A stretch of DNA of 60,810 nucleotides, filler included. It is 3 parts of 3 records of this genome, joined end to end, with 100 filler letters (N's around TTAATTAATTAA, not from the genome) between each part and the next. Parts side by side here need not be neighbours in the genome. Positions count along the whole stretch, not along the records: positions 26,563 to 52,376 come from SRR22947727_1397; 2 more parts are not named here. The stretch is one strand, 5' to 3'. The notes beneath the pieces were generated by a model, which saw nothing but the letters and a program-made list of their open reading frames with translations, searched no databases and was not told where the DNA came from. Below, piece by piece: positions 14,755 through 52,476 of the stretch. Within the stretch, counting starts at the first letter, position 1; the number at the start of each line of letters is the position of its first letter. The translations under genes were made by a program, and so were the position numbers.

Positions 14755-16172
14755 CGGGTGCGTTTGTTTGAACGATTAAAAAGAAGGTAGCGTCGGGAGG
14801 TTTTGTCGATTTGAGGCTCGTTAACATGAACTGGCTCCAAGCCGGTTTCCTGAAAAATTCCGGGGTCAGCAAATTCCATGGTTTCTTCAACGATTTCGGA
14901 TCGATTGATTTCCAAATCGACGGTATCGCGCGGCATTTCAGCGCCAGGATGGCTCGGTATGATGTGCGGCTGAATGAAAATGAGCAGCTCCTCGCGGCGC
15001 GTCCGTTTGTCGGTTGAACCCAGCATTTTTCCCAGAATTGGAATGCGCCGAATCACGGGAAGGCCGGTCGATTCTTCTTCCTCGCGCTCGGTAATGAGTC
15101 CTCCGAGAACGATGGTTGAACCGTTGTTTACCGAAACGGTGGTGATCAATTCCTGAGTCGAAAGCGTCGGGATTTCGTTTCCGAAATATTCTGGCTACCG
15201 GTGATATTGTCGTTCAACTGAGCAATTTTCAGGGTGACCTGATCATCCGAATTGATCAGCGGGATGACCTGCAATTTCAGGACGACATCGCGACACTCGA
15301 TGTTCGAAGCGATCGATCCGGGGAATTGATTGTTTCCCAGCCCATTGCCGCCGGTGCTGGTCAGCGTCGAGAGCGGCACGGCAATTCGCTGACCGCTTCA
15401 AATGGTAGCCTTCACGTTTTTTTGCGCATAAATTCTGGGCCGCGAGAGGATACGGAAGCGGGTGTCGCGGGTGAACAAATTGATCATTCCATTCACCAAC
15501 GCGTCGTCGCTGCCAAACATCATTTGCCCATAGACAGACAATCCGCCAGTTGCTCCTGAAAAGGCTGAAGAGGAAGCCAAACTCGCAATGTCAGCAATCG
15601 GGTTCGCCGTTCCGTCAGCGCCGCCTTTCAAAAACGATCCGGCACCGGCAACGCTGCGATTATCGGAAACCTTAAAGCTATCCAGCGTCTGCAACGCATT
15701 CAACGCGTAGCCGAAATCGTCGCCCAAATTGAGCTGGCCAATCACGGTCGAGATGTAAACCTGGCGTGGCTGGATATCGATTTCATCGATGAGTTTTTCG
15801 ACGATTTCGAGGTGCTCCGGCGAACCTGATACGATCAGCGAATTGGCCTGCGGATCGGCGATTAAAAGCGTATTTCTGACGACGTAACTTTGAGGCTGGC
15901 CGCGTTCTTCTGTCTCAGAAAGTCTGATCGGGTGCGGTTATTTGCGAACTCCAACCAGCTCCGGCCCCACCAGAAAAACCGGTGTTTTGGATGCCTGAAT
16001 TTTGTCCGCCGAGATTTGGAGCGTTTGCGGCATCGAGTAGATTGTCTCCTTTTTCGATATCGGTTCCGCGAGCCAACGCATTGTAAAAAGCGGGCAAATA
16101 CTCGGCGACGGAAACGTGATTGAGCGTCCGTTTCAGAAAATTAACGCCATCGCCGGGCTGATCGATGAACAA
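14751..16172 (-). pseudogene. Disrupted GspD/PilQ-type secretin
   Basis: Secretin motifs (LIADPQANSLIV, QVYISTVI, ILSRP, TIVLGGLI, GLPVIRRIPILG, ELLIFIQP) split over several ORFs by frameshifts near 15920 and 15180 and an in-frame TGA at 15398-15400; 5' part missing. Confidence 0.85.
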
Positions 16173-26462: not shown

Positions 26463-26562
26463 NNNNNNNNNNNNNNNNNNNNNNNNNNNNNNNNNNNNNN
26501 NNNNNNTTAATTAATTAANNNNNNNNNNNNNNNNNNNNNNNNNNNNNNNNNNNNNNNNNNNN
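26463..26562. other. Artificial contig spacer
   Basis: N44-TTAATTAATTAA-N44, stop codons in all six frames. Confidence 0.99.
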
Positions 26563-28593
26563 AGCTTTCATTTGTAAATGTTGCATGATATGAGAATGTA
26601 TTAAAGCTTGAACTTGAGCATTCATTTGCACCGGAGGTGTGTTTAACAGAGACATATGAATTGAAATATGTGCATCATGATTTTGTTGTGGGAATGCTTG
26701 AGCTTGTTGTCCTAATAGTAATTGATTATTTTCAAAGCCAGCTTCCAAAGGAAGAGGATCTGTAGGGGGTGGAGGTGTTAATATTTGCTCTACATTATCT
26801 ACGCCTATTGCAGCGTACATTCTTTTGTAAGCTTCATATGTACCGTTAGGCCCATGCACTTGCGGATTGGATTGCACCAATTGCATCATTTCTTGTGCCA
26901 TAGCAATTCTTTGTGATTGACTGAATATGTCAGGATTGGATATTGGGAATATATCTACCTTTTCATCAAAATCAGAAAGTTTTATAGTTGTTTCATTATT
27001 TGCTACAGAATATGGATATTCTTGTGGCAAGTATTCTTGAAACACTTTTGACAATATTTTAAATTCTTTCTTTTGTGAATTGTGCAAACGTTTATGAATA
27101 GCAGACAATACTTTTGTAGATCTTTCTAATAATGCAAGTGTTGTACCTACCGGAGCGTTTGGATTGCCTTGACCTGTATTTATTTCAGCAATAGATGCAA
27201 ACTTTTGTCCTGAATTAACCAACATGTTTAATAACTGAAGCAAGGTTCCACTAGGCTCTTTAAATGGTAGTGGCTGTATTGAATCTCTTAACGATCCACC
27301 TGGAGCATCTACATCTCTAAATTCTCCTGGTTGTATTGGAGTGTCTTCGTCTCTAATTCTAATGCCTCTGGTCTTAAAACCAGCAGGTAGATTAGCTAAA
27401 GTACCAGCATCAATTAATTGCCTCATGATAGATGTTGAAGCTTTTGATAAACCACCAATCATATGAGTTAATCCAAATCCATAAAACCCTAAACCTGGCA
27501 AAAACTTAAAGTGAACAAAATATTCTATTTTATTTTTAAGTGCGTCATCTTCTTTATAGTTTCTTCTAACAGAAAGAACGTCATTTGAATTAGTATCTAT
27601 AGTAACGATATAAGGCAGTTTAACACCAGTCAACTGACCTTCTTCGTCCGTATCTTCAAAACCTTCTAACTCTAAATTGCAATGGACTTCGTATAAAAGA
27701 GAAACTTCGCCATCATCATATGAAGGCTCCATGCCAGAAAGTTTATCTATTTCTTCTTTAACACCACTATACTCGTCAGCACTATCACCACTACTTATAT
27801 CTATCTTTTTATAAAATCCTATGGATTGCAGTTTTCTAACTTCATTTTCAGCAATTTTAATAACGTTTGTAATTCTAGGACAAGTTTCTAAATCAGTTGT
27901 GTAGTAAGGAACTATTAGATCTTCAGGTGCAATAAACTTTGATACGGCCCTTCCCAAGCTTTCATCATAATAAACTTTTTTAAAAGATGATCCTGCTAAA
28001 GGCAGATAAAAAAGCATTTGGTCTAACTCTTCATCAAACTCTTCCATTACATGAGTAATTTGATAATTCATAAATTCTTTAACTCTTTGTGCTTGTTCTT
28101 CTACCAGAGAATCATAGGCACCTATGACTTGAGTTTTAACTGGACCGCCAGACGGCAACAGTTCTTTATAAGCTTGAGCCTGAAAAGTTGTTACGGCTTC
28201 ACCTAACAAAGGATGAATAACTCCACTTGCGCCCTCAAAAGGTTCAGACCTTTCGGCATCAAAGCGCATCCCAAGGTATTCTAAACCGTCTTTATATGTT
28301 TTCTCCCAGTCTTCCCTAGAAGCTTTGTCTTTTTCTATTCCTGCAATTAATTCATTTGCAATATTTCTTAATTCTTGAGGATCTAAAACTTCAGCTAAAT
28401 TGCTATCAAAATCTGTATCTACTTCCTCGGCAATTGATGCTCCAAGAATGGCGCTACCATCTTCTTGCATTTCAAAACCTTCAGCTCCTCTTTCTTTAAT
28501 TGCTTCTATAACAATTTGCATGTCTTCTTGACCAAGCGGCACTTGATTTTGTTCATTTAATACCGTTGGGTTTATATCTTTTTCTATTGCCAT
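26563..28593 (-). CDS. Phage portal protein (3'-truncated)
   Basis: PFEGASGVIHPLLGEA, LPLAGSSFKKVYYD, GFYGFGLTHMIGGL, QLIDAGTLANLPAGFK motifs; follows TerL. Confidence 0.9.
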
Positions 28594-28597
28594 AATC

Positions 28598-30058
28598 CTA
28601 GTAGTATATTCTCCTTACTGGTGCTTTTTCTTTGTCTGTATAATCATCGTCAAGAGAAACTAATCCACCCTCTCTAAAACGCATCAAAGCTTGTGTCATA
28701 GTATCACATAGGTCATCATTTTTACCAAAAGGAAATGCAGCACACTCTTCTATCATCTCTTCTGCAAATTTCTTTTCAGGCGCATACACCAACCCAGACT
28801 CAAATATAGGTGCAACTGAATGCATTCTGGTTGATTTGTCATGCCCTCTGGTTGGAGAATAATTAACTACCGGTATCCCCAATCTCCTGAGTTCATGCGT
28901 CAAAGGAGTTCCTGAAGCTTTAGCTTCAATTAAAACCATATCAGGTTCCCAGTATTGATATTCTTCGTATGCTACTCTTTTTAATTCTGGAAAATCCCAA
29001 CGGTCTTTTTGTGCATCTAATAAAATTACGCAATCAGGAGAATCAGGCGTAGGTTTAAATACGCCCCACGTTGAAATAGCAGAATAGTCTGCGTTTTCTT
29101 TTTTACTAAACGCAGTATCATAACTTTGAATGATATAACTAACGGGCGGTAAAACTTCGCTTTCCCAAGCCTTCCACCACTCTCTTTTAACAATAGATCC
29201 TTCTTCGGATGTAGGAGTCTGCATCCATTGTGCATTCCATTTTTGCACCGGCAAAGATGCTTTAACCTTTGTCAGTTCATCCATAGACCAGAACTCAGGC
29301 CATAAAGCATTATTGGTTTCAGGGAATATAGCTGGAAACTCTACCATTTCCCATTGGTCAGCCGATAACTCTTTTTGAGAATCCAACAACTTTGCGGTTA
29401 AATCTATTGAACTCCAACGAGTCATTACCAATATAATAGCTCCACCTGGTTGCAAACGTTGTCTCGGTCCAGATGTGTACCATTCCCAACACGCTTCCAT
29501 AGCAGTAGGGCTAAGAGCGTCTTGCTCTGAATGAGGGTCATCAATAATTAATAAATCTGCACCACGACCCGTAATCGCTCCTCCCACACCTGCTGCAAAG
29601 TATTCGCCACCTTTATCAGTTTCCCAACGACCTGCTGATTTAGAGTCTGCTTGTAATTGAACTTTTGGAAATATTTGTTTGTATTCATCCGTATCCATCA
29701 TGTTACGAACCTTACGACCAAATCGTACAGCTAACTCCCCTGTGTGAGTTGTTTGCATAATCTTTCTTTTTGGTTGCTTGCCCATAATCCAAGCAGGAAA
29801 ATAAGTGGAACAGAACTCAGACTTTGTATGTCTGGGCGGCATATTAATAATAAGCCTATTGCACTTACCATTAGCAACGTCCTCTAGTTTTTGTGCAAAT
29901 ATTTTATGGTGACGGCCACAAATAAACTCTGGCCACATATGATCAATAAACTCTAAGAACGTTTCTTGGCAACCATTTTGCTTCTTTAACAGTTCTAAGC
30001 GTTCTTTTAAAACTAAGGTTTCTTTGATCTCTTGATCGGAAAGATGAGCCAGATTCAT
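28598..30058 (-). CDS. terL: Terminase large subunit
   Basis: NMPPRHTKSE Walker A, ITGRGADLLIIDDP Walker B, MTRW, SYDTA and IEAKASG nuclease motifs, FPFGKNDDLCD. Confidence 0.96.
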   Translation of the reverse strand: MNLAHLSDQEIKETLVLKERLELLKKQNGCQETFLEFIDHMWPEFICGRHHKIFAQKLEDVANGKCNRLIINMPPRHTKSEFCSTYFPAWIMGKQPKRKIMQTTHTGELAVRFGRKVRNMMDTDEYKQIFPKVQLQADSKSAGRWETDKGGEYFAAGVGGAITGRGADLLIIDDPHSEQDALSPTAMEACWEWYTSGPRQRLQPGGAIILVMTRWSSIDLTAKLLDSQKELSADQWEMVEFPAIFPETNNALWPEFWSMDELTKVKASLPVQKWNAQWMQTPTSEEGSIVKREWWKAWESEVLPPVSYIIQSYDTAFSKKENADYSAISTWGVFKPTPDSPDCVILLDAQKDRWDFPELKRVAYEEYQYWEPDMVLIEAKASGTPLTHELRRLGIPVVNYSPTRGHDKSTRMHSVAPIFESGLVYAPEKKFAEEMIEECAAFPFGKNDDLCDTMTQALMRFREGGLVSLDDDYTDKEKAPVRRIYY

Positions 30059-33216: not shown

Positions 33217-34458
33217 CTAGTTTTTTTTTTGTAAATTTGCTATATCAACGTCTAAACCTTTAGCAAACATAGGAATCATAGAACGATCTAAGTTAGAAAT
33301 ATTTCTGCCTGATTCTCCAAGTATATTTCTTGGCGATAGCATTTCAAGATCTCTGTTAGGAATTGTTCTTCCTGATTCTCCTAGAATTTCTCTTGTATTT
33401 ATGCCTTGACCGCGCATCATCATTTTTCCTAGTTTGTCTGATTCATCCATTTCAGACTCATAACCTTGTACTACTCTGCCAACAAATTCTCCTATTGACT
33501 CCCCTAATTCTGACGCAATCCCAGCAGCTTCATCTACAACTTCTTGAAAACCTTTATCTACTTGAGCTGCACCTCTGCCTATATCTTCAGGTACAAATCC
33601 AGTTTCTTGCGCTATTTGAGCTAGAGCGTAACCTCCGGCTGCTATCGCTCCAGGTATCCCAAATTTAGATACAGGACTCATAGCAGCGCGACCAAGTGCG
33701 CCTGATACAATATTTCCTACTGGAGGTCTGTTTTTTAAAACTTGGTTTGAAATGTTTTGAACTCTTGGCCCAGTAGTCCCTGGTCTTCTGCCTGAACGAA
33801 CTTCATCACCTTCTGCAAATCCTGGTCTTTCAAACGGTACGCGATCCAATTCAATACCAAGATCAAACCCTTGATTTGGCATAGGAACCGCAGGCATATC
33901 TTGCATAGGCATGTTTCCTGAACGACGTCTGTCAAAGAATTTTTGATAAATAGATCCTAGCCCTCCTTTTGATTTAGGTCTTATTGGTCTAATACCGCTA
34001 ACGCCCCCTCTATTCCCTCTTGGAGGATCAAATAAAGGATGTCCCGGTCCAAAGGGAAATGGCCTAGAAGGCGTTCCTGGCAATTCACCAGGTCTAACTA
34101 TAGAAGGAGGAAGCGGTCTGTCTGGAAGACTCGGGGGGAATCCTCCTCCTCCTATTGGGGATAAAGATCTAGGATCAAAACCGCTCCTATCATCTCCAGG
34201 TTGAACTCTAGGATCAAATCTTTGTTGTTGTTCTGCTAGAAGAGCATCTATCTGGTCACGAAGCTTATGTTGTTTGAAGCTATCATCCAAACTTCCAAAG
34301 AATCCGCCCCCTCTGCTGGGTTGTGGAGTTCCACCCATACCTTTTAAAGCATCAGCAGACATACCAAACATACCCATAGGCTGACTGGGAGCCATTTGCT
34401 GTTGTTCAGCCATTCGCTTTTGTTTTATTTTATTTGCCAGTCTTTTAAGAAAACTCAT
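33217..34458 (-). CDS. Low-complexity Pro/Gly/Met-rich phage protein
   Basis: 413 aa; FAEG and FAKG motifs; two ILGESGR repeats; ends at an A10 run. Confidence 0.7.
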   Translation of the reverse strand: MSFLKRLANKIKQKRMAEQQQMAPSQPMGMFGMSADALKGMGGTPQPSRGGGFFGSLDDSFKQHKLRDQIDALLAEQQQRFDPRVQPGDDRSGFDPRSLSPIGGGGFPPSLPDRPLPPSIVRPGELPGTPSRPFPFGPGHPLFDPPRGNRGGVSGIRPIRPKSKGGLGSIYQKFFDRRRSGNMPMQDMPAVPMPNQGFDLGIELDRVPFERPGFAEGDEVRSGRRPGTTGPRVQNISNQVLKNRPPVGNIVSGALGRAAMSPVSKFGIPGAIAAGGYALAQIAQETGFVPEDIGRGAAQVDKGFQEVVDEAAGIASELGESIGEFVGRVVQGYESEMDESDKLGKMMMRGQGINTREILGESGRTIPNRDLEMLSPRNILGESGRNISNLDRSMIPMFAKGLDVDIANLQKKN

Positions 34459-34476
34459 TTGAAAATAATATATTAA

Positions 34477-34812
34477 TTAAATGGTAAAACCAAGTGCTCC
34501 TTCACCCATACCGAACATTTCTTCAGCCATCTCTAACTCTTCAAGAGTCATGCCGATCTGTTTTAGGAACTCTTCGATCTGTTCTGGGGTAGCTCCTTCA
34601 GCCTCCATTTGTTGCAAAATTTTTATAATTTGCATGAGGGCTTGTTTAGCTTCGTCTTTTTCTTGTTCGCTAAGACTGTTAATTTGTGATTGCAATTGCT
34701 CTGGTAAAATAGGGGCCGCCGGAGTCCCTTGCATCATCTGTTGACCTTGAGGCATCTGTTGGTCTGGCATCATTACTGGTGCAACTTCCATATCCATCAT
34801 TTCTTCTTCCAT
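34477..34812 (-). CDS. Acidic Met/Gln/Glu-rich phage protein, first gene of the packaging/structural operon
   Basis: 111 aa; AAGGA RBS; promoter directly upstream. Confidence 0.75.
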   Translation of the reverse strand: MEEEMMDMEVAPVMMPDQQMPQGQQMMQGTPAAPILPEQLQSQINSLSEQEKDEAKQALMQIIKILQQMEAEGATPEQIEEFLKQIGMTLEELEMAEEMFGMGEGALGFTI

Positions 34813-34837
34813 AACTTGATCCTTTATGTTTGTTCGG

Positions 34838-34867
34838 ATTGTAACACCAGACTAAGTGAAATGTAAA
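34838..34867 (-). promoter_or_regulatory. Sigma70-type promoter for the terL/portal operon
   Basis: TTTACA-18 nt-TACAAT with extended -10 TGn. Confidence 0.55.
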
Positions 34868-34996
34868 AAAAATGGTTTTTGTTTGTGAGAGATCCTGTCC
34901 TTGTGTGTGTCCCTAGCGCGTAGCGCCGATTTGCCCCCTCCCCCCGTCACCAAGCCCGACGCCCGATCCGAAATCACCAAATAAATAGAGTCCCAT

Positions 34997-35029
34997 AAAA
35001 AAAGGGAGCTAATGCTCCCTTTCTTTTTT
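34997..35029. terminator. Bidirectional intrinsic terminator
   Basis: AAAAAAAGGGAGC-TAAT-GCTCCCTTTCTTTTTT just after the stop of the 66-aa gene. Confidence 0.85.
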
Positions 35030-35037
35030 GGCAACTG

Positions 35038-35238
35038 CTACGAGTCTAACGGCGGCACTAATGTCATGCCGATATTTTCTGGCGTTGCCTGTCCGAGCAA
35101 GTCGTTCATCTCTGCGTTAATGCCACCTTGTGCGATCACGTGAACTCCGTTGATGATCAGGCTTTGGCAATTAGTTTCAATTGCTTTGCCTACTACTGTG
35201 GTGCCGTCTTGGTTATATAACATTATTTCTATTTTCAT
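35038..35238 (-). CDS. Small phage hypothetical protein (early cassette)
   Basis: 66 aa; AGGAGG RBS, own promoter and terminator. Confidence 0.8.
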   Translation of the reverse strand: MKIEIMLYNQDGTTVVGKAIETNCQSLIINGVHVIAQGGINAEMNDLLGQATPENIGMTLVPPLDS

Positions 35239-35278
35239 TTTGTGACCTCCTAAAAGTCGTTTTGTTAAATGAGTACCT

Positions 35279-35307
35279 ATGATCTCATATTGGATACATC
35301 TTGTCTA
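35279..35307 (-). promoter_or_regulatory. Promoter with TGTATCCA box in spacer
   Basis: TAGACA-AGATGTATCCAATATGA(17)-GATCAT. Confidence 0.65.
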
Positions 35308-35509
35308 CTATTATTTCATCTTTTTTTCACTCCACATCTTTGGTGTGTTAGACCTGCCTTGCCAAGCTGGCGACCAACCTGCCGTCCCTGGCTGGCAAAC
35401 TTGTCCTTGTGTTAGTGTAGTCTGCTGGTTAGCAGGCCCGAACCCGAGATGAATACTCAGCCCCGATCCCGACCTGCTATTAGGAATACCAGCAGATACA
35501 AAACTAAAG

Positions 35510-35827
35510 CTAGCTCAAGCACTTGTACATTTCTTCCCAGTACTCATCTATATATTCAAAGTCTGAAATAATACTCTTGCAAGAGTCTCCACCCCAGTAG
35601 CCTTGAATCTCTTCATGATACGTGTCCAGGTAAACGTTAGGACCGCCTCCAGCTAACATGATCCGAACACCAACATAGGTCCCATCTCCGTTTATTGTGT
35701 ACTTGACATCATAAGCTTCGTAAGGAGGATCTGCATCATCCTCTGGATAAAATAGCATCTTACCGCTGCTCGCATCGGCTGCGTAGTCTTTGCACATGTC
35801 GCGCAGTTGTTTCTCACAGTCACTCAT
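35510..35827 (-). CDS. Phage hypothetical protein
   Basis: Start overlaps the methyltransferase stop (ATGA); RIMLAGGGPN motif. Confidence 0.75.
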   Translation of the reverse strand: MSDCEKQLRDMCKDYAADASSGKMLFYPEDDADPPYEAYDVKYTINGDGTYVGVRIMLAGGGPNVYLDTYHEEIQGYWGGDSCKSIISDFEYIDEYWEEMYKCLS

Positions 35828-36453
35828 GCTACCGACCCCCATTGCTCTGCCATAGCTTCAGCCAGGCCTTTATGAAACTTGCTTCTAACCTTCCAGCGAT
35901 CCGGTCCCGGGCTGGCATGATGTATGTCGTGTCTAGCCGTCTCCTTGGTTAGGTTACCGGTCTTGACCAACTTCGGTAAGTTCTTTAACCAAAGACAGGT
36001 GCGCTTAGTTACGTTGTCTTCTGCCTCAACAGATTCGGCAAACTCATACGGTTGTACGCTTTGTGCAAACGGTTCAAAGTTTTGGATCCTGGACTTGGCG
36101 TGCTTGTGCATGACTGGATTCTCAATAGCTATCCGGGGAACATCAGCGTTCCATAGATCTGAGAACAGGGCCGTACCCTCGTCCAACTCTTGCCACATTT
36201 CTTCAACGGTTTTACCTGAAGGCGCCTTGTGCAACCAACGCACACCAGAGTTACAAAGTCTGGTGCAGGGTGGGTGGGCTACCATCAACAGGTCCCAAGC
36301 TTCCATCTCTAGAACATTTCTGATGTCGTCCTGGATGTGTCGGTTGGTCTGATCATCAGCCGGCAGTATGTCGCAGGACCAAGTATCGTGACCTTTATCT
36401 AGAAAAGCGTTTCTAACGGTTCCGCTAGTCTCGCATCCAATTAATATCTTCAT
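35824..36453 (-). CDS. Minimal DNA cytosine-5 methyltransferase-like protein
   Basis: AHPPCT catalytic motif IV, IENPV motif VI, KRTCLW motif VIII, C-terminal GLAEAMAEQWG; divergent motif I (GCETSG). Confidence 0.8.
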   Translation of the reverse strand: MKILIGCETSGTVRNAFLDKGHDTWSCDILPADDQTNRHIQDDIRNVLEMEAWDLLMVAHPPCTRLCNSGVRWLHKAPSGKTVEEMWQELDEGTALFSDLWNADVPRIAIENPVMHKHAKSRIQNFEPFAQSVQPYEFAESVEAEDNVTKRTCLWLKNLPKLVKTGNLTKETARHDIHHASPGPDRWKVRSKFHKGLAEAMAEQWGSVA

Positions 36454-36483
36454 TAGATCTCTCCTATAAGTTAATGAAACTTA

Positions 36484-36512
36484 ATAATAACCATCTGGAT
36501 ACATCTTGTCAA
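36484..36512 (-). promoter_or_regulatory. Strong sigma70 promoter with TGTATCCA box
   Basis: TTGACA-AGATGTATCCAGATGGT(17)-TATTAT. Confidence 0.85.
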
Positions 36513-36648
36513 CTCTTTATTTGTATTTATTCGAGGGCCTGGAGCTGCTGGCCAACCCAGACTTGTGTTACTCTTGTGTTTCTTCCCCCCACCCCAGAGC
36601 TAAAAACCCCCATCCCAGCTCCCGATTTGTTTTCCCCGACTTAAATAC

Positions 36649-36682
36649 AAAAAAAAGCCAGCTGTATAGCTGGCCTCTTTTT
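36649..36682. terminator. Intrinsic terminator
   Basis: A8-GCCAGCT-GTAT-AGCTGGC-CTCTTTTT after the gene ending at 36694. Confidence 0.8.
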
Positions 36683-36693
36683 ATTAAATAGAT

Positions 36694-36855
36694 CTAATCT
36701 TCCGAAAACAAGTCCCCAGGGATCTGCTGCAAAAGTGTGTCTAAGTTCTTATGGCATCTGTTGAATAGATCCTCTCTCCCAGTTGCTCTAGCTAACCCGA
36801 TCATCCCGAGTTGGAATTCAATTGCATCCTTTAACAGCGTTTTATCTTTGCTCAT
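36694..36855 (-). CDS. Small phage hypothetical protein
   Basis: MSKDKTLLKD..., GGAGAG RBS inside upstream microgene. Confidence 0.65.
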   Translation of the reverse strand: MSKDKTLLKDAIEFQLGMIGLARATGREDLFNRCHKNLDTLLQQIPGDLFSED

Positions 36856-36991
36856 TTGCACTCTCCATACACTTTGGACACTCCACATCAGCTTCAGCTA
36901 CTAGCAAGTTACTGAATATGAACTGTTTCGGTTCTTTCATCTTGGTTGGTTTCTTAATATCAGAACCACACTCTGCGCACATATATCTCAT
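36842..36991 (-). CDS. 49-aa zinc-ribbon microprotein (not in ORF track)
   Basis: MRYMCAECGSDIKK...VECPKCMESANEQR; AGGAG RBS; directly after promoter at 37021-37049. Confidence 0.75.
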   Translation of the reverse strand: MRYMCAECGSDIKKPTKMKEPKQFIFSNLLVAEADVECPKCMESANEQR

Positions 36992-37020
36992 TACTTTCTC
37001 CTAATAATTAATGAGTCTTT

Positions 37021-37049
37021 AATTTATATAAGTGGATACACCTTGTCAA
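37021..37049 (-). promoter_or_regulatory. Sigma70 promoter with TGTATCCA box
   Basis: TTGACA-AGGTGTATCCACTTATA(17)-TAAATT. Confidence 0.8.
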
Positions 37050-37176
37050 CTACTTTCGTAATCTTTTTTAGCAAGCTGCCTGGAACTCCTGCAGACCTGG
37101 TTGTGTGATTGTGTTTTCTCCTTGTGTTGTTTACCCCACACTCAAATCTGTTTCCCGATTCCCGAATTCCCGACAT

Positions 37177-37200
37177 AAAAAAGCCCGAACTAAGTCGGGC
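37177..37200 (-). terminator. Intrinsic terminator
   Basis: Minus strand GCCCGA-CTTAGT-TCGGGC-TTTTTT. Confidence 0.8.
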
Positions 37201-37278
37201 TAATTTATTGAAGTGGAGAGGCGATTAGGTAATGAACCCAACTCTTATACTAGACTCATGTAGCCTCTCCATTCAAAT

Positions 37279-37677
37279 TCATAGGTTAACCTCCTGTTCT
37301 AATATTTTCATAATATCTTCAACAGAATCAGCGCCAACTTGAGCAATTAAGATTGTATTACACAAATCAGTTTGACAAGACCACATACTCTCTAAACGCA
37401 GTCTGAAATTTCTATCTTCATCTTGATAGTCATACTGATTAGTTAGAGTCCAATACTCCGAAGGATTATCTTTATTAAAAGAATTCATCTTTTTTGCAAT
37501 AGTCTCTCCTATTTTTGAAGCCTCTTTATTTATTTTATCTCTCTCTGCTTCTAGTTTTGACAGCTCTTTATAAAGAGAAGTTTTTTTAAACTCCTCGTTC
37601 TTAGACACCATATCAGCTTTCATTCTTTTATAGAACTTTGAAGCAAGTGCTTCTCTTTCTTGTTTATTTGTTTTCAT
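37279..37677 (-). CDS. Coiled-coil phage hypothetical protein
   Basis: 132 aa; AGGAGG RBS. Confidence 0.8.
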   Translation of the reverse strand: MKTNKQEREALASKFYKRMKADMVSKNEEFKKTSLYKELSKLEAERDKINKEASKIGETIAKKMNSFNKDNPSEYWTLTNQYDYQDEDRNFRLRLESMWSCQTDLCNTILIAQVGADSVEDIMKILEQEVNL

Positions 37678-37719
37678 TTTTATATACCTCCTAATAGTAT
37701 GTTGTTTAAATGAACCCTA

Positions 37720-37750
37720 AGTATAACACGATATGTATACAAATTGTAAA
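37720..37750 (-). promoter_or_regulatory. Extended -10 promoter with palindromic TGTATACA box
   Basis: TTTACA-19 nt-TATACT, with TGn before the -10; TGTATACA at 37734-37741. Confidence 0.65.
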
Positions 37751-38158
37751 CTATTTAAGTAAGCATTTTTCTTCCACAAACGGCGTCCCATCTCAGATCC
37801 TAAAGACGCCAGATCTCCTGAAGTCCTTCTGGTGTGTTATTATGTGTTATGCCCTACGCATTAAAACACTCCCCCGACCCCGAAAAGAAAACCCCGACCC
37901 GACCCGAATGATTCAGCAACCTTTCAAAACTATCCAGCGTCCCTCCTGGGAGATCTGGATGGGCTTATTGTGTTGTGTTATGTGTAGCTACGCACACTAA
38001 CCGTAAGTTCTATTAGGCAATCCCGAACCCGACCCGATTCGCTTGCTTTTTTATAGGAGAGTGACCGAGAGACAAAGGAAATGCGATAAACTTTCAAATT
38101 CCCTGCATATACGTAAATATAACTATAAAAATATATTACACTTTGTACGCTAAAGTTC

Positions 38159-38187
38159 TTGCATGTTATGGATACATTTGGTAATCT
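38159..38187 (+). promoter_or_regulatory. Rightward sigma70 promoter with TGGATACA box
   Basis: TTGCAT-GTTATGGATACATTTGG(17)-TAATCT. Confidence 0.7.
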
Positions 38188-38366
38188 GTCTATAGTTTAG
38201 TATTTCGTAGAAGTATTTACCTGACGAGGTGTAGCGATTGCTCAAACTAGTGTTGACGGACACTTAAAAGACCTAGAATAGTAAAGTAGCCGTTGAAGGA
38301 GTTGGTAGTAATCTTCGGACTAAAAAACTACCACTTTATTAACCCAAATCTTATAGGAGAGTAATT

Positions 38367-38786
38367 ATGGGAACTAGAAGCAATATCGCTTACAAAAAAT
38401 CAACAGGGGAGATAGTCAGTATGTATTGTCATTATGACGGCTACCCACAATATAACGGAGTAATGCTTAACGAACATTACAACACCAGAGAGAAAGCCAG
38501 AGGCCTCGTAGACAACGGCTATCAATCAGCACTTAAAGAAACCGTAGAGGAATCTAATCTGGACAGGGTGCATGAAGAACCCCCCAAGACTTACCGTTCA
38601 TTTCATGCTTTTATTATGGACATTAACTTTGATATTGAATGGGTATACCTATTCAAAGATGATGCTTGGTATTATGCTGAGACTTCATTAATCAGTTTGC
38701 CTAGTGGTAGATATGATGTTGAAGTTGACGCTTTCTCACTACTATCTGATCTGCATTACACAATAAACGCAGGAGATCAATCATGA
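38367..38786 (+). CDS. Conserved phage hypothetical protein (MxTRSxI...YCHYDGYP type)
   Basis: 139 aa; TAGGAGAG RBS. Confidence 0.8.
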   Translation: MGTRSNIAYKKSTGEIVSMYCHYDGYPQYNGVMLNEHYNTREKARGLVDNGYQSALKETVEESNLDRVHEEPPKTYRSFHAFIMDINFDIEWVYLFKDDAWYYAETSLISLPSGRYDVEVDAFSLLSDLHYTINAGDQS

Positions 38787-38995
38787 GTAAGAAATTTAAA
38801 TGTACTGTAGTTGAAACATACACCCAATATATAGAGATACCTGACGAAGTTGATATAGCTGATGTTGATTTAAGCGAGGTCTATGACTTTTCAATGCCAG
38901 AAGATAGCGACGAAACTGTAACACCAATAAGAAACGATAGTGTCGTTGACCTGGTTTATAAAGACGGAGAATTTGAGGAGTACAAAGATGAGTAA
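38783..38995 (+). CDS. Small acidic phage protein
   Basis: 70 aa; overlapping start/stop, AGGAG RBS. Confidence 0.7.
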   Translation: MSKKFKCTVVETYTQYIEIPDEVDIADVDLSEVYDFSMPEDSDETVTPIRNDSVVDLVYKDGEFEEYKDE

Positions 38996-39194
38996 ATACA
39001 AAGCAAAAAGATATATACTTGAATCTATATGGGAAGAACAATGGGTGGAGTGCGAAGCTGATTCTATAGAAGAAGCAGAGACAAACTTTGAGAATGGAGA
39101 CTGCGATATTGAATCTTCTAAAATGGGAGAGTTAGAGGATAGTGGCCTTCAAATTATTGTTGAAGATGTAGAACTGGAGTCCGACAATGAATAA
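38988..39194 (+). CDS. Small acidic phage protein
   Basis: MSKYKAK...VECEADSIEEA; GAGGAG RBS. Confidence 0.7.
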   Translation: MSKYKAKRYILESIWEEQWVECEADSIEEAETNFENGDCDIESSKMGELEDSGLQIIVEDVELESDNE

Positions 39195-39351
39195 ATTTAA
39201 ATTTGCCCAGGACGCTGTATTCTTTATTACCGTTGGTTTTGTATGGGTAGTATTAATTTTATCAATTGCTTTATTCTTTTTGCCTTATTATTTATTGCGA
39301 GAAGTTTGGAATTGTTACGAAACTTGGCAAATAAACAAGGAGAAGAGCTAA
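39187..39351 (+). CDS. 54-aa single-TM membrane microprotein (not in ORF track)
   Basis: MNKFKFAQDAVFFITVGFVWVVLILSIALFFLPYYLL...; GGAG RBS; stop overlaps next start (TAATG). Confidence 0.7.
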   Translation: MNKFKFAQDAVFFITVGFVWVVLILSIALFFLPYYLLREVWNCYETWQINKEKS

Positions 39352-39554
39352 TGGCAATAACAACAGAAGAAATGAAAGAAAGGATAGTTGATAACGAAAT
39401 CAACTACATAAGGGAAATGGTAAATAGAGATAGATATGATGATCTATTTGAGTTTGTTTATCAGTATTGTTTTAACGATTTTAAATCAATGAATAATGAA
39501 GAAATTAAAGAACAGTATGAGTGGAGATTTTTTGATGAGGAGCAAACCCAATGA
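39351..39554 (+). CDS. Small phage hypothetical protein
   Basis: MAITTEEMK..., AGGAG RBS. Confidence 0.7.
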   Translation: MAITTEEMKERIVDNEINYIREMVNRDRYDDLFEFVYQYCFNDFKSMNNEEIKEQYEWRFFDEEQTQ

Positions 39555-39841
39555 CAGTAATATTTGAAAAATCTTTTCCAAAAGAACCCAATGGAATAAA
39601 AAGACAATTTACCAGTTGTTGTGGTGCTAGTGACAAAGGTTTAGACGATTGCGTTGGTTGTAGAAGTTGTTACCAAGAAATATACGAATATTTTGGTGTT
39701 GGCAACGAAGAAACTTTTAAAGAGTACATCAACGATTCTAAGATTATGAAAAGATTTGAAGAATTCTTAGCTGATACGAACGAAACTTACGAAGAGTGGC
39801 ACGTTAACCTAATGAAAAACCATTTTAAGGAGCAAGGCTAA
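39551..39841 (+). CDS. Cys-rich phage hypothetical protein
   Basis: SCCGA...CVGCRSCY. Confidence 0.7.
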   Translation: MTVIFEKSFPKEPNGIKRQFTSCCGASDKGLDDCVGCRSCYQEIYEYFGVGNEETFKEYINDSKIMKRFEEFLADTNETYEEWHVNLMKNHFKEQG

Positions 39842-40089
39842 TGACACAATTTAAAGACGCAGTTGAAAAACAAAAAGGCCTTATAGCTTACCTTAAATGG
39901 TCAAAGCAAATTAAGCATATTCATTACAATAATGGGATTGAAGAAGTCACGTACAGAGACGGCAGTAAAGAAATGACCGATCTGAGAACAGAAGAAGTAA
40001 CTTACATCCCAAGAGTAAAAAGAAGAAAAAATTTAATTGACTCCAATCCCTTTGTAAGGTTTTTGAGAAAAATTAAATTCTACCAATAA
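39841..40089 (+). CDS. Phage hypothetical protein
   Basis: 82 aa; AAGGAG RBS. Confidence 0.7.
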   Translation: MTQFKDAVEKQKGLIAYLKWSKQIKHIHYNNGIEEVTYRDGSKEMTDLRTEEVTYIPRVKRRKNLIDSNPFVRFLRKIKFYQ

Positions 40090-40090
40090 G

Positions 40091-40119
40091 TTGATAAATA
40101 CGACATATACGGATATTAT
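40091..40119 (+). promoter_or_regulatory. Sigma70 promoter not followed by a + strand ORF
   Basis: TTGATA-17 nt-TATTAT. Confidence 0.7.
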
Positions 40120-40124
40120 GCCTA

Positions 40125-40217
40125 GGTGGTACTTGTTTGATTTGATTTCAAATCTTCTCTACTCTCCTAAAAGTATGTGTCTTACGAGTGCCACAACCTC
40201 ATGACTTTTTTATTTTG
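40125..40217 (+). ncRNA. Candidate small RNA with anti-Shine-Dalgarno loop
   Basis: Own promoter; 11-bp stem 40126-40136/40184-40194 with two G-U pairs; loop TACTCTCCTAAAAGTATGT; T-rich 3' tail. Confidence 0.55.
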
Positions 40218-40261
40218 GATAGCCGTCTTTTTGTATGTTCTTATCTATGTACTAGACAGAC

Positions 40262-40900
40262 CTAATCAGAAATAACCCCATTACTTAAATCTTTAGGGCT
40301 TGCCGTCTGCAAGTCCTCGCTCTCTAATTCCTCTAAAGTATCTGCTTCATCTACCTGATCTATTGAACCATCAGGATCTCCTGGATCCAAAAGACCGTCA
40401 GTTGTATTGGCTAGGGCTATATTCCCCATCAGCTGCTCCAGGCGTTTCTCTACTTCTTCCCGACTCATTTGATCTATCTTCCCGAACATAACTTCTTTCC
40501 TATCAACAACCAGGCCCCCGACTTTAAGTAAACTGTTTTGAGCTGAGATGGCTGCGTTGAAAGATCCGGCCTCCAAAGCCTTGTCCCGAATGTCGTACAG
40601 ATCTTGAACTGCCCGATCATAATTAAGCTCATACTTCTTCTTAGCTTCATTCATCAGATAGTTATATTCCTTGCGAATGATAGGATGATTCATCAGTTTA
40701 TTGGCAGACTGCCTAGCATCTTTGTACCCAGCTTTGTGAGCGCACTCCACAAGAGAAAGCCGAGGATTATTAACGGCTTGCCATATAAAGTTTCGTTGTC
40801 TGCGATTAAGGGAGTTGTCTAGGTTAGCGTATTCAATGGGAGCTTCTTCTTCTGGAGCTAAGATGGGTTCATATTCAAGTTTGTTTTTTCTATATCCCAT
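40262..40900 (-). CDS. terS: Terminase small subunit
   Basis: LNRRQRNF...ECAHKAGYKDARQSANKLMNHPII HTH pattern; AAISAQNSLLKVGGL helix. Confidence 0.8.
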   Translation of the reverse strand: MGYRKNKLEYEPILAPEEEAPIEYANLDNSLNRRQRNFIWQAVNNPRLSLVECAHKAGYKDARQSANKLMNHPIIRKEYNYLMNEAKKKYELNYDRAVQDLYDIRDKALEAGSFNAAISAQNSLLKVGGLVVDRKEVMFGKIDQMSREEVEKRLEQLMGNIALANTTDGLLDPGDPDGSIDQVDEADTLEELESEDLQTASPKDLSNGVISD

Positions 40901-41137
40901 ATGTATTTAGCAGTTTAGAGTCAAAGTAGTTAAATATACCTACCCCCACATTACCCTAAAGTGTATGGAGAGGATACCTTAATACAATTTATGCCGTCAA
41001 GGTATTTGTTATATTTTTATACTGTTTTCCCTTTGTTCTTGTGACAAAAATGAAAAAAATAAAATAATCATGAAACCTGCTTAGTTAAAGGGTTTTTTAC
41101 CGTCATATATCCATGACAATAATAAGACAATAATGAT

Positions 41138-41446
41138 TTAGTCATCATCTGGCCCCAGTTTTGGAGTTAATGTCTCAAATAAATGATAGTTATGAAATGT
41201 ACTTTTGTTCTTATCCACCTGGACATATTGATCAAGGATCTCGTTCACAAAATGATACACTTCTTCATCATTATTCGTTATCTTTTGTATTTTCCAAATA
41301 CAGTAACTTAAAGTAGTTAAAACAACCGTAAACTCATCTTCATTTCTTAAAGTATAACTATTGAATAGCTTACTTAACCTTTCCACCATTTCTTTTAAAG
41401 TGGGTTTAGGCATTTTACTTTGTATTGGAACTACTTTTAGCGTCAT
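41138..41446 (-). CDS. Phage hypothetical protein
   Basis: 102-aa ORF. Confidence 0.65.
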   Translation of the reverse strand: MTLKVVPIQSKMPKPTLKEMVERLSKLFNSYTLRNEDEFTVVLTTLSYCIWKIQKITNNDEEVYHFVNEILDQYVQVDKNKSTFHNYHLFETLTPKLGPDDD

Positions 41447-41453
41447 AAATAAA

Positions 41454-41672
41454 CTATACCTTAGTTTTACTTCTTACTTCCATAAATTCATCCAGTATTT
41501 TTTTAGTCTTACCGTACATCTCATGAATAATCATAGAGTAACTATCAGCTTGTATTGGCGTATGATTGTCTGCCGCGTTAGATTCATGTTCAATGCAATA
41601 GTCTAAACGGTCATTCATTTCTTTAAGTGACTTCATTACTTCTATTATGTACTTATCTTCTTCTTTACTCAT
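41454..41672 (-). CDS. Phage hypothetical protein
   Basis: 72 aa; AGGAGG RBS. Confidence 0.7.
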   Translation of the reverse strand: MSKEEDKYIIEVMKSLKEMNDRLDYCIEHESNAADNHTPIQADSYSMIIHEMYGKTKKILDEFMEVRSKTKV

Positions 41673-41768: not shown

Positions 41769-41960
41769 ATGAATATAACAAAAGAACTGGATGCTATTAT
41801 TGAGACATCCACCAACAACTTGCATGATCGTATAGAACGAGAGCTTACAAAAGATAAACTAAACTATGCTCTGTTTAACATTAAAACGAGCATATCTGAG
41901 CTAACACAATGCGTCAAAGAACTTACTGATGCAGTTGATAGATTAGAGGAGGCATCATGA
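41769..41960 (+). CDS. Small coiled-coil phage protein
   Basis: 63 aa; TTAGGAGAG RBS. Confidence 0.75.
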   Translation: MNITKELDAIIETSTNNLHDRIERELTKDKLNYALFNIKTSISELTQCVKELTDAVDRLEEAS

Positions 41961-42832
41961 ACGAACTACCAGAAATATTAGAGAACCAAGAACATGTAGT
42001 CTTAGGAGACGCAATTTACTTTCCAGATATGGAGCATAATTTTTATCATGAAGCTCCAGGCATATCATCATCAAACATTAGACGATTTGGCCAGAGTCAA
42101 CTTCATGCATTTGAAGAAGATAACGAGACAACACCAGCCATGAAGCTTGGGACCGCAGCTCATTCACTTATTGTTGAAGGAGAAGAGGCATTTGTTAATG
42201 ATGTAGTTTGCCTAAGTGGATCTCCATACACTAACGCCAATAAAGAGCTAAAGAAAGAGTATGAAGATAGAGGGCTAACCGTTATCTCAGCTAAAGACAA
42301 AGAAACGCTTTACAACATGAAAGAAGCTTTGATACCGGAAGGAGTCAAACATCTTTCAGCAGTACGGGGCGAATACCCAGAAGTATTTAACTCTCCGTTT
42401 GAAAGAGCGATCTTCTGGTGGGAAAAGGATCTATTACTGAAAGTTAAATCTGATGTGCTTAGATACCCTTTAGATACTTCTAGCGATCCAAAATCAATTA
42501 TCCTGGTGGATTATAAGACTACTGCCGACTGTTCTGTTAGAGGCTTTACATCTTCCATTAGAAAGTACCAATACGAACTACAGGCCGCTTGGTACAAACG
42601 TGGATACGAAAAGGCTGGGTTTAACGTGGTTGATTTTATGTTTGTAGCACAAGAAAAGAAAAAACCATTTGCAAGTAAGATCTTCAAGATGAAGCATGAG
42701 GACATGACATCTGGTTGGTTAAAGCTTGAGCATTTACTGGGCGAATACAACGCAGTATTAAACGGTAAGGAAGCCACAACATACAACTCACCTAATATAG
42801 TTAATGTAGATCTGAAAGGATGGGGAGAATAA
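41957..42832 (+). CDS. RecE/exonuclease VIII-like PD-(D/E)XK nuclease (DUF3799 type)
   Basis: YH...GISSS, GTAAH, FE, KVKSD, VDYKTT, YELQAAWY motifs. Confidence 0.88.
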   Translation: MNELPEILENQEHVVLGDAIYFPDMEHNFYHEAPGISSSNIRRFGQSQLHAFEEDNETTPAMKLGTAAHSLIVEGEEAFVNDVVCLSGSPYTNANKELKKEYEDRGLTVISAKDKETLYNMKEALIPEGVKHLSAVRGEYPEVFNSPFERAIFWWEKDLLLKVKSDVLRYPLDTSSDPKSIILVDYKTTADCSVRGFTSSIRKYQYELQAAWYKRGYEKAGFNVVDFMFVAQEKKKPFASKIFKMKHEDMTSGWLKLEHLLGEYNAVLNGKEATTYNSPNIVNVDLKGWGE

Positions 42833-43164: not shown

Positions 43165-43623
43165 TTAAAACGGAGGTTTATCTCCTGCTGGTGAAGGTTT
43201 CATTTCTGAAGGTTCCATCTTTATGATTTTAGTTTTCAAAGAAGTAACATCTTCTCCCTGGTCATTCTTCCAGTTATCTTCAAACTGTCTGATACCAAGT
43301 ATAAGTTGTTTACCAATTAAATCCTTACCAAATTCCGGAAGCTTTTTAAATCCACAAGTAATAGCAAGGCGACTAAATATCTCACTCGCTATTCTTTTAG
43401 ATTTTTCATTAGCAGACCATAAGTTGTACCATTCATTATGATCGCGGTATGCACCACCATCAATTTGAAAAGTAACTTTCTGGGTCCAATTACCGCTGTT
43501 AGATTTGTATTTTTCAGCAGCAATAATCTTTGCTTCGTATTCTCCAGTTGCAGCAACTTCGGGACCCGTAGATTCCATTTGCTCCGCATTCTCGAAAAAA
43601 TCAACATCATTAAAATCTGACAT
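43165..43623 (-). CDS. DUF669-like single-stranded DNA-binding protein
   Basis: GEYEAKIIAAE..KSNSGN motif, C-terminal PPF; follows Sak4-like ATPase. Confidence 0.75.
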   Translation of the reverse strand: MSDFNDVDFFENAEQMESTGPEVAATGEYEAKIIAAEKYKSNSGNWTQKVTFQIDGGAYRDHNEWYNLWSANEKSKRIASEIFSRLAITCGFKKLPEFGKDLIGKQLILGIRQFEDNWKNDQGEDVTSLKTKIIKMEPSEMKPSPAGDKPPF

Positions 43624-44342
43624 TATGCACTCTCCTTATTTTCAATATTAATAGAAAACCCTAACTTTTCAATTAGAGCAGTTAATTTAGGTTCCTCAAA
43701 GGCTTCTAGCTTACCGCTACGATCTTTGGCTGTGTAGCCTTGACCTATCCTTGTTTGTAACCACCTTTCCGCTACAGCATTACCGTCATCATCTTGACCG
43801 TCAATAATACGTAGGGCCAAAACCTCGTCAAAGAAATACGTAATTGCATCTCCTAGAGGTTTACTTGCCATTTTAGGACCAAAGAAAAACACGCCGTCAT
43901 TATTATCTTTACCTTCTTTGCAAAGAAATAATACGTGCATATCTAAATCCCTAAATGATCTCATAAGACTTGTAACGGCTTCACTCACATTCTGGTAAGC
44001 CATTCTTCCGTCTTTATTTCTGCTTTTCTCATGCACCAGTAAGATCTCTGAGATCTCTGAAACAGAGTCTAAACACACGCTATCATAGGATAGTTCACCA
44101 GATGCTAGAGCGGCATACACCTCTCTTAGATCATCATAATTCTTTACCTCGATAGCAGACACGTTAGACGCATCTTTAATAGAAAGCAATCCAGCTTCTG
44201 CACTTATGACTAAAACTTTACCTGGCATACTTTGTGTTGCGTATGTTTTTCCAGATCCAGCTTGACCATAAATCAATAGCTTGGCTCCCTGTTGATCCAC
44301 CATTTTATCTGGTGTCTTTATTTTATCTTTTAATTTGCTCAT
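43623..44342 (-). CDS. Sak4-like AAA_24 ATPase (annealing/recombination)
   Basis: LLIYGQAGSGKT Walker A, VCLDSVSE Walker B, AKDRSGKL; start MSKLKD. Confidence 0.88.
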   Translation of the reverse strand: MSKLKDKIKTPDKMVDQQGAKLLIYGQAGSGKTYATQSMPGKVLVISAEAGLLSIKDASNVSAIEVKNYDDLREVYAALASGELSYDSVCLDSVSEISEILLVHEKSRNKDGRMAYQNVSEAVTSLMRSFRDLDMHVLFLCKEGKDNNDGVFFFGPKMASKPLGDAITYFFDEVLALRIIDGQDDDGNAVAERWLQTRIGQGYTAKDRSGKLEAFEEPKLTALIEKLGFSINIENKESA

Positions 44343-44375
44343 AACCACCCTCCTTATGTATGTGAAAAAATGAAC

Positions 44376-44411
44376 TTGATTATTATAACTCAAGAAACTA
44401 CAATATGTAAA
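44376..44411. promoter_or_regulatory. Overlapping divergent sigma70 promoters
   Basis: + strand TTGATT-17-TACAAT; - strand TTTACA-18-TATAAT. Confidence 0.6.
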
Positions 44412-52376: not shown

Positions 52377-52476
52377 NNNNNNNNNNNNNNNNNNNNNNNN
52401 NNNNNNNNNNNNNNNNNNNNTTAATTAATTAANNNNNNNNNNNNNNNNNNNNNNNNNNNNNNNNNNNNNNNNNNNN
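52377..52476. other. Artificial contig spacer
   Basis: N44-TTAATTAATTAA-N44. Confidence 0.99.

Follow-up and report, generated by a model that had tools for sequence, protein, structure and literature searches.

Strand-polar arrays of two short words between the early-gene cassettes of an uncultured marine phage

The DNA analysed here (the window, 60,810 nucleotides) consists of three contigs joined by filler, with N at 26463-26506, 26519-26562, 52377-52420 and 52433-52476 around the linker TTAATTAATTAA. Its middle contig, SRR22947727_1397 (26563-52376, ~37% GC), carries a phage fragment, and need not belong to the organism of the flanking contigs (50-58% GC). On this phage contig, six arrays built from two short words, TCGGG and ACACA, are interleaved with small gene cassettes between a structural operon and a divergent control region. 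The structural operon runs on the minus strand from 34812 to 26563 and holds open reading frames (ORFs) of 111, 413, 277 and 769 amino acids (aa), as well as the genes for TerL (28598-30058) and the portal protein (26563-28593). On the other side of the control region lie a TerS-like gene (40262-40900), SSB (43165-43623) and a Sak4-like annealase (43623-44393), all on the minus strand, and a RecE-like exonuclease (41957-42832) and a prim-pol/helicase (44777-46897) on the plus strand.

By its TerL sequence, the phage groups with the HTVC023P-type: the protein is 57-61% identical to those of four phage records, two of which are HTVC023P-type pelagiphages, and 89-98% identical across the best 80 of 469 confirmed stretches in IMG/VR. 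The sequencing runs containing the phage stretch come from seven studies of marine or seawater samples. According to its describers, the most abundant marine viral group known is that of the HTVC023P type (10.1101/2019.12.14.876532). Megablast found no close relative among cultured phages, and neither did distant blastn for locus L144. The 413-aa neighbour protein had no match in IMG/VR, TerL had none in species-representative genomes, and the array DNA had none in the nearest available genome, where the region is absent.

The six units lie where an earlier note, made from the letters of the window, had placed them (34881-38040). That note read their grammar on the plus strand, as a CTGG/CCAG box followed by TGTGT and then CCCGA words. 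The direction was mistaken: all cassette genes are on the minus strand, and in the sense of transcription the words are TCGGG, then ACACA, followed by the box and the promoter. Each unit thus reads, after a preceding terminator, as two to five TCGGG words, 24-44 nt, one to three ACACA[A] words, a GC-rich segment, an A-rich tract and a sigma-70-type promoter. The promoter of each cassette, whose spacer carries a conserved TGTATCCA, is followed by a strong ribosome-binding site and an ORF. TGTGT does precede CCCGA on the plus strand as proposed, with 24-44 nt separating the final TGTGT from the CCCGA that comes next.

All six units have minus-strand sense; their words are counted here as they appear on the plus strand. 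Unit 1 (34881-34971; two CCCGA, three overlapping TGTGT) reads in minus sense as two TCGGG words, a G-run and then ACACACACAA. It is located upstream of the structural-operon promoter, has no CCAG/CTGG segment, and its words are invariant in nine distinct orthologue sequences that we aligned. Unit 2 (35339/35351-35472; four CCCGA, two TGTGT) has four TCGGG and two ACACA words, and its CCAG/CTGG GC-rich segment falls between the latter (TGTGT at 35344 before the box and at 35408 after it). In unit 3 (36536-36639; two CCCGA, two TGTGT), two TCGGG words and further G-runs precede two ACACAA words and the GC-rich segment. Unit 4 (37071-37188; four CCCGA, three TGTGT), for which 14 orthologues were available, has four TCGGG words, the first of which is the 3' arm of a terminator stem, then three ACACAA words and the GC-rich segment. 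Unit 5 (37781-37907; five CCCGA, two TGTGT) consists of five TCGGG words, two ACACA words in a conserved 20-nt block and the GC-rich segment, and unit 6 (37932-38037; three CCCGA, three TGTGT) of three TCGGG words, three ACACA words and the GC-rich segment. Units 6 and 5 stand in tandem, with neither promoter nor gene between them. Neighbouring words are mostly 5-8 nt apart (96 of 177 spacings for the window type, 139 of 225 in other lineages). Two more minus-strand TCGGG words are found at 36796-36809, inside a 64-aa ORF (36694-36888).

The enrichment of the words and their polarity, both implied by the earlier note, are genuine and well outside what chance would give. The spacer DNA, 1,712 nt in all, has 20 CCCGA on its plus strand against a single copy on the minus strand, with an expectation of 0.29 copies given the remainder of the phage contig and of 2.27 under a first-order Markov model; a count of 20 was reached in 0 of 2,000 simulations. 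TGTGT has 15 plus-strand copies and none on the other strand (0.98 expected from the rest of the contig, 3.03 from the Markov model; 0 of 2,000 simulations). On the plus strand of the whole window, 22 of the 72 CCCGA and 18 of the 42 TGTGT fall inside 34881-38040, compared with only 1 of 55 TCGGG and 1 of 23 ACACA. CCCGA is also as rare elsewhere in the AT-rich contig as had been claimed: the other plus-strand copies are five in the TerS-like gene and two in ORF 36694-36888, and no more. Words outside the arrays show no skew (2 versus 3). For the CTGG/CCAG box assigned to units 2-6, a GC-rich segment is indeed present, but it is not a defined box: CTGG (20 versus 12.8 expected by length) and CCAG (17 versus 12.9) are weakly enriched, and the sequence varies among orthologues. 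Dam- and Dcm-type sites are not clearly enriched in this segment either (GATC, 21 versus 15.8 expected by length; CCWGG, 10 versus 5.5).

We then compared the region among close relatives, which share 65-85% nucleotide identity with it. Every related IMG/VR locus that reaches the region has the array, on the same strand. Among 25 related sequences we counted 114 distinct TCGGG clusters and set apart 24 with the spacing signature of the TerS gene. In all of the 90 others ACACA follows within 70 nt downstream, a position where TGTGT is found in none; 24 of these 90 also have ACACA upstream, at least some of them being tandem units. In alignments of 9-15 orthologues per unit, the conserved columns are the words and the promoter cores, while the spacers and the GC-rich segment vary, so that words, order and strand are kept and spacers are not, as the earlier note had it. 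As a test, it had asked whether cargo varies while the motifs persist. This was borne out, with extra cassettes in two relatives (L046 and L048), no cassette between units 4 and 3 in six, and a methyltransferase-like gene that is present or absent among close relatives (missing in L011). Promoter-free tandem units comprise units 6 and 5 in every relative covering them, and units 4 and 3 in six. In one 91%-complete relative, paired TCGGG words are distributed 13:0 by strand, all within one 2.2-kb stretch, and the arrays hold their position in relatives with a different replication module. Orthologous units retain their own spacing signatures across genomes, for example 15-8-7 or 5-5-14-6. Therefore, paralogues have not been homogenised and the words are kept one by one. 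Because these individual spacings are kept and the words are only 5-6 nt long, selection acts on the words themselves, and the alignments point to purifying selection that keeps TCGGG, then ACACAA, in non-coding spacers.

Five further TCGGG words lie inside the TerS-like gene (40459-40616, minus strand), 2.2 kb from the start of the main arrays. They form a cluster of two plus three over ~160 bp and are spread over three codon frames. Of the third-codon positions within them, 8 of 10 are invariant, compared with 37 of 140 elsewhere (Fisher one-sided p = 0.0011), a mark of synonymous-site constraint on these words. A ~40-nt block of the gene with two TCGGG words (40400-40470) shows hardly any variation at any codon position among 13 sequences, and a cis element (a pac site, for example) may here overlap a conserved protein motif.

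Scanning IMG/VR for exact matches to three TCGGG words in a row returned the window's relatives plus low- and mid-GC contigs without detectable nucleotide similarity to it, which carry strongly polar TCGGG arrays without ACACA. In four of these distant records (L234-L237), TerL is 58-65% identical in three of the four, TerS is 28-36% identical, and the TerS genes contain no TCGGG at all. The arrays of the distant records are confined to 4-5 kb and to one strand (24 versus 1 words in a 96%-complete genome, 28 versus 0 in another). Word strand equals the strand of TerS and TerL in 13 of 13 loci on 11 contigs, and likewise in the window and in L236. A well-supported L235 gene (phrog_1617, E 7e-48) is oriented opposite to the words. 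One array of L235 lies between convergent genes and is therefore not upstream of any co-oriented promoter, and another overlaps the -35 element of the opposite-strand phrog_1617 gene. Polarity stays constant despite the inverted neighbour gene; it is thus a property of the genome and not of the local promoter. The largest array of L234, L235 and L237 (7-16 words) begins directly after an operon of TerS and a small nuclease. The same adjacency was observed in loci L124, L138, L144, L151 and L177, of which L138 is on the L235 contig and L144 on the L234 contig.

The small gene that follows TerS in L234, L235 and L237 is PD-(D/E)XK/VRR-NUC-like, and its reading frame continues into the first TCGGG array. 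An unannotated ORF of this type also adjoins TerS in HTVC027P (L001, 15636-15926) and in 023Pt_psg01 (L002, ~15010-15400). A likeness to the T7 junction pause site in the L234-type sequence before the first array was discarded, as that sequence is the coding 3' part of the nuclease-like gene.

Other polar words occur in HTVC027P, in 023Pt_psg01 and in their kin. In 023Pt_psg01, GGGCCCACCC is found five times, on one strand and in five spacers, and nowhere else in 39.5 kb, while GCTYGCT is distributed 11:0. HTVC027P has AGCTTG-type words beside its cassette promoters. GCTYG-type words were present in 15 of the 24 023Pt-like loci with enough upstream DNA, always on the TerL strand. In L250 they lie against the -35 element, and in L275 and L317 they immediately precede the ribosome-binding site of genes on the minus strand.

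The cassettes themselves were delimited by a consensus scan for promoters and terminators, which listed 11 promoter sites scored as matches out of 12 and confirmed the promoters and the three clear terminators of the earlier note. The promoter of the structural operon (34838-34867, minus strand; TTTACA, 18 nt, TG-extended TACAAT; 10/12 + TG) is almost unchanged across nine orthologues. A bidirectional intrinsic terminator (35001-35022) lies 3' of a 66-aa ORF (35038-35238, minus strand), the promoter of which (35279-35307, minus strand; 9/12 + TG) has the TGTATCCA motif in its spacer. The next cargo consists of minus-strand ORFs of 110 aa (35510-35842) and 209 aa (35824-36453). The latter is the methyltransferase-like ORF that varies among relatives; it matches PHROG 757 (DNA methyltransferase; phrog_757, E 1.5e-54) and no Pfam family. 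A minus-strand promoter at 36484-36512 (TTGACA, 17 nt, TATTAT; 11/12) has a core that is invariant in 13 orthologues. A second bidirectional terminator (36657-36674) follows the 64-aa ORF and a 49-aa ORF (36842-36991), with a minus-strand promoter at 37021-37049 (TTGACA, 17 nt, TAAATT; 10/12), and a third (37182-37201) follows a 132-aa ORF (37279-37677, minus strand). The promoter of the 132-aa ORF (37721-37750, minus strand; TTTACA, spacer with TGTATACA) was read by eye and is absent from the 11 scan sites, and is conserved in 15 orthologues of unit 5. The divergent control region (38040-38366; 13 sequences aligned) contains a plus-strand early promoter (38169-38196; TTGCAT, 17 nt, TAATCT) with TGGATACA in its spacer. 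Pfam gave nothing above cut-off for any cassette ORF, and the Atlas gave no function for the 139-aa or 132-aa protein.

We tentatively favour the possibility that the units are protein-binding, strand-polar arrays for a polar process at the level of the genome, probably packaging recognition. A phage-encoded factor would bind the TCGGG/ACACAA words in a process that is directional along the genome, namely the recognition or processing of replicated DNA for packaging. The arrays would then form a multi-site, pac/pacB-like landing region for the small terminase, with self-contained promoter-gene-terminator cassettes interleaved among the sub-arrays. We infer that a protein binds the words, that TerS or another packaging factor is the reader, and that packaging is the process. 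The link to TerS or to packaging, which the earlier note had proposed in the form of TerS and packaging initiation, stands as a circumstantial one: the words in TerS are constrained, the largest array follows the TerS operon in related lineages, and polarity matches the terminase strand. We also counted in its favour that each genome has one array locus, with words in or beside TerS, that some arrays lack a promoter or lie between convergent genes, and that T7, the source of the closest TerL of solved structure, offers a precedent. It is possible too, if rather doubtful, that the words form a code over the variable early region that is read by a translocating or ring-shaped protein (the small terminase or a partner) as a distributed packaging and orientation signal.

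Several observations weigh against packaging. A single packaging site would suffice, and arrays in each spacer with a fixed three-part order fit a role for each cassette more simply. Five of the six window units lie 88-130 nt upstream of a -35 element, measured from the first CCCGA word. The spacing of the words lacks 10-11 bp phasing, which is unusual for binding to double-stranded DNA. In L236 the arrays are 2-4 kb upstream of TerS and not after it. Across seven sequences, no co-variation between the TerS helix-turn-helix and word usage was visible, and the window TerS has a recognition helix that resembles the one in HTVC027P, a phage with other words, more than it does those of other TCGGG users. 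As the words of HTVC027P and the 023Pt-like loci are placed differently, they are not proven equivalents and a clade-wide generalisation is uncertain. The TerL of solved structure closest to that of the window is T7 gp19 (E 1e-5), and in a direct comparison the two are distant (21% identity over 219 residues, E 3e-8). Finally, contig ends point to no common terminus, as 22 locus ends are spread across 33.1-41.1 kb without a shared position; the 23 runs listed, four of which were examined, are all assembled Logan contigs, which show no molecule starts or ends.

Phage T7 offers the nearest parallel in layout. In its record, the strand counts of CCTAAAG are 11:0 in favour of the top strand within the first 340 nt, just ahead of promoters A1-A3, and 5:0 at the right end, past gene 19. 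These end arrays were reportedly named SRL and SRR by Dunn and Studier in 1983, and their function is, to our knowledge, not settled. Like the arrays of the window, they consist of a one-stranded short word with variable spacing directly before early promoters of the host polymerase. The two thus share a layout of terminase gene, polar word arrays and host-polymerase early promoters. The T7 arrays differ in having other words, in being restricted to the ends and not placed between successive cassettes, and in having no second word class in fixed order. T7 TerS gp18 recognises PacB in the concatemer (PMC9860248). Repeated short sites, in some lineages in or beside the small-terminase gene, partly liken these arrays to pac and cos regions such as P1 pac, lambda cosB and T7 PacB. 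The P1 pac hexamer clusters and the lambda cosB R sites are repeated TerS sites, and we know of no pac site with six further arrays interleaved with genes over 3 kb.

The units could instead act as transcriptional modules for each cassette, with a bound factor, from phage or host, that would activate, time or insulate the sigma-70-type promoters, for example by boosting early promoters or by blocking read-through or interference between tandem units. We consider this possible but doubtful. No promoter in the leftward series lacks a unit; the first CCCGA is 88-130 nt from the -35 element, and an A-rich, UP-like tract lies between the unit and that element. The other polar words abut -35 elements in HTVC027P and L250, and the L235 array that overlaps an opposite-strand -35 element may be added to these. 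The arrangement also resembles rrn P1, with its UP element and several Fis sites, and phi29 p4, in combining a near-consensus promoter, an A-rich tract and repeated sites in the upstream 100-150 nt. HTVC027P is without an RNA polymerase of its own, and its equivalent region includes the genes gp33 and gp34, which make up a temporal class apart, with high levels 6-9 h after infection (PMC12753301), a special timing that would suit such modules. The words of the window differ from the rrn P1 and phi29 p4 sites in being direct, polar and unphased, and units also occur without a promoter (unit 6 in every relative covering it, unit 4 in six) or, in the case of one large array, between convergent genes. 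Moreover, polarity does not change where the neighbouring gene is inverted, the distance to the -35 element varies by tens of nt without helical phasing, and neither the plus-strand early promoter at 38169-38196 nor promoters elsewhere in the contig have a unit of their own.

We think it unlikely that the arrays are recombination linkers, in which co-oriented arrays and shared promoters and terminators would provide short homologies for the gain, loss or swap of cassettes without inversions. Such linkers would be similar to the promoter-early plus stem-loop (PeSL) cassettes of T4-type phages reportedly described by Arbiol et al. in 2010, which the earlier note had invoked. The cassette architecture agrees with that suggestion: the small, variable ORFs each have an early promoter and a stem-loop terminator, their cargo varies among relatives, and they are flanked, as in the PeSL definition, by promoters (36512, 37049, 35307, 34867) and terminators (35001, 36657, 37182). 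Homology islands between close relatives correspond to terminator-plus-TCGGG segments and promoter cores, whole cassettes between units 4 and 3 are missing in six relatives, and the phage encodes a Sak4-like annealase, SSB and an exonuclease. In addition, TCGGG arrays are the sole nucleotide-level likeness between lineages that share no other BLAST hit, recombination between direct repeats needs uniform polarity, and the contigs of the region are highly fragmented in viromes. Recombination homology alone is nevertheless a weak explanation. The repeat is a separate word unit of 90-130 nt, an addition to the PeSL plan between terminator and promoter, and paralogues have only words in common. These words are 5-6 nt long with unrelated spacers between them, whereas annealing proteins need far longer homology. 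Orthologues also keep their individual word spacings and paralogues are not homogenised, so words are kept singly and not as a homology block, and linkers leave the synonymous constraint on the TerS words unexplained. The window phage is not T4-like.

Also unlikely is a single-strand reading, in which an oligomeric protein that reads 5-nt words at 5-8 nt intervals would bind them in single-stranded DNA or in RNA, either read-through or long late transcripts from the terminase strand, for antitermination, termination or RNA stability. The dominance of 5-8 nt spacings fits this, as does a polarity tied to the late, terminase strand, and many copies of a 3-5 nt word at 5-8 nt intervals are characteristic of TRAP sites. 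TRAP reads triplets in single-stranded nucleic acid, and predicted folds tend to leave the words of the window unpaired. A 74-aa ORF (6373-6597) within the L234 array region matches a Q-like antiterminator PHROG (phrog_6060, E 2.4e-7). Contigs from RNA libraries, at depth 2-5, cover units 1 and 2 and part of unit 4, which is weak evidence as DNA carry-over is possible. Most units, however, lie 3' of strong intrinsic terminators and 5' of promoters and should therefore be poorly transcribed, and as the structural operon has its own near-consensus promoter, read-through is not needed. A structured RNA was rejected: fold z-scores of the six units on both strands ranged from -2.0 to +1.3 relative to shuffles, with no shared structure. 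An Rfam 15 scan of 34000-41500 gave a lone hit, to Trp_leader, on a terminator and well below threshold (21.7 bits versus a gathering score of 41, E 0.83).

It is very improbable that the units work as non-B DNA, with G-quadruplexes on the G-rich minus strand, or i-motifs on the C-rich strand, upstream of strong promoters, where they would take up supercoils or stall polymerases. All putative quadruplex motifs of the 25.8-kb contig with one long loop (up to 12-15 nt) are in the units, on the minus strand (four to five of the six), and with a loop of up to 15 nt such motifs are present in 61 of 91 units of relatives, 30 having none. Canonical quadruplexes (four G-runs of at least three, loops of 1-7 nt) were found in none of the six window units and in 4 of 91 in relatives, the TC before GGG is conserved with no need for it in a quadruplex, and neither the ACACAA words nor the non-G-rich words of HTVC027P fit. 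The most remote of the alternatives, Chi-like words by which a host RecBCD/AddAB-type nuclease, coming in from a DNA end close by, would be attenuated, would suit short, polar, redundant, unphased, G- or GT-rich words near packaging genes, but is at odds with the lack of genome-wide skew outside the arrays (2 versus 3 in the contig) and would not predict a fixed order of two different words. We also rejected an iteron-type origin, which would call for helically phased repeats of ~17-22 bp with an initiator gene and an AT-rich unwinding element alongside, as the words are 5-6 nt long and mostly 5-8 nt apart, and the arrays do not adjoin the prim-pol/helicase (44777-46897).

If the arrays are indeed a distributed, multi-site packaging signal, they would represent a new pac architecture, one that keeps its function when cassettes are inserted among redundant sub-arrays. 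Such a code would span a large marine podophage clade that is linked by TerL to the HTVC023P-type group, itself very abundant. It could provide a handle on DNA packaging or early-gene timing in uncultured phages and a signature by which metagenomic contigs could be searched for the variable early region and perhaps for genome ends, and it may be a reason why assemblies break at the array region. In the literature searched, including the accessible parts of PMC9599517, PMC12753301 and 10.1101/2019.12.14.876532, we found no description of these arrays.

Some smaller features of the region were also observed. The element TGTATCCA, or TGGATACA on the other strand, recurs in the spacers between -35 and -10 elements at 35290-35308, 36495-36513, 37032-37050, 37733-37751 and 38169-38190. 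Promoters of both directions share it, and a phage regulator is a candidate to use it as an operator. A purine-rich block at ~38060-38100, GAGAGAGGGG followed by ~30 conserved nt, lies between unit 6 and the divergent promoters and varies hardly at all among 13 relatives. Six relatives lack about 160 nt of the leader 5' of the plus-strand early operon (38187-38350), and a virome contig from run X1 has a joint at 38187/38350 with 29 other letters in place of these. Lastly, three relatives contain a cassette promoter followed by ~150 nt without ribosome-binding site or ORF and then a terminator (L046, 3364-3545; L069, 3705-3870; L070, ~320-520), and these stretches may be small-RNA cassettes within the array.

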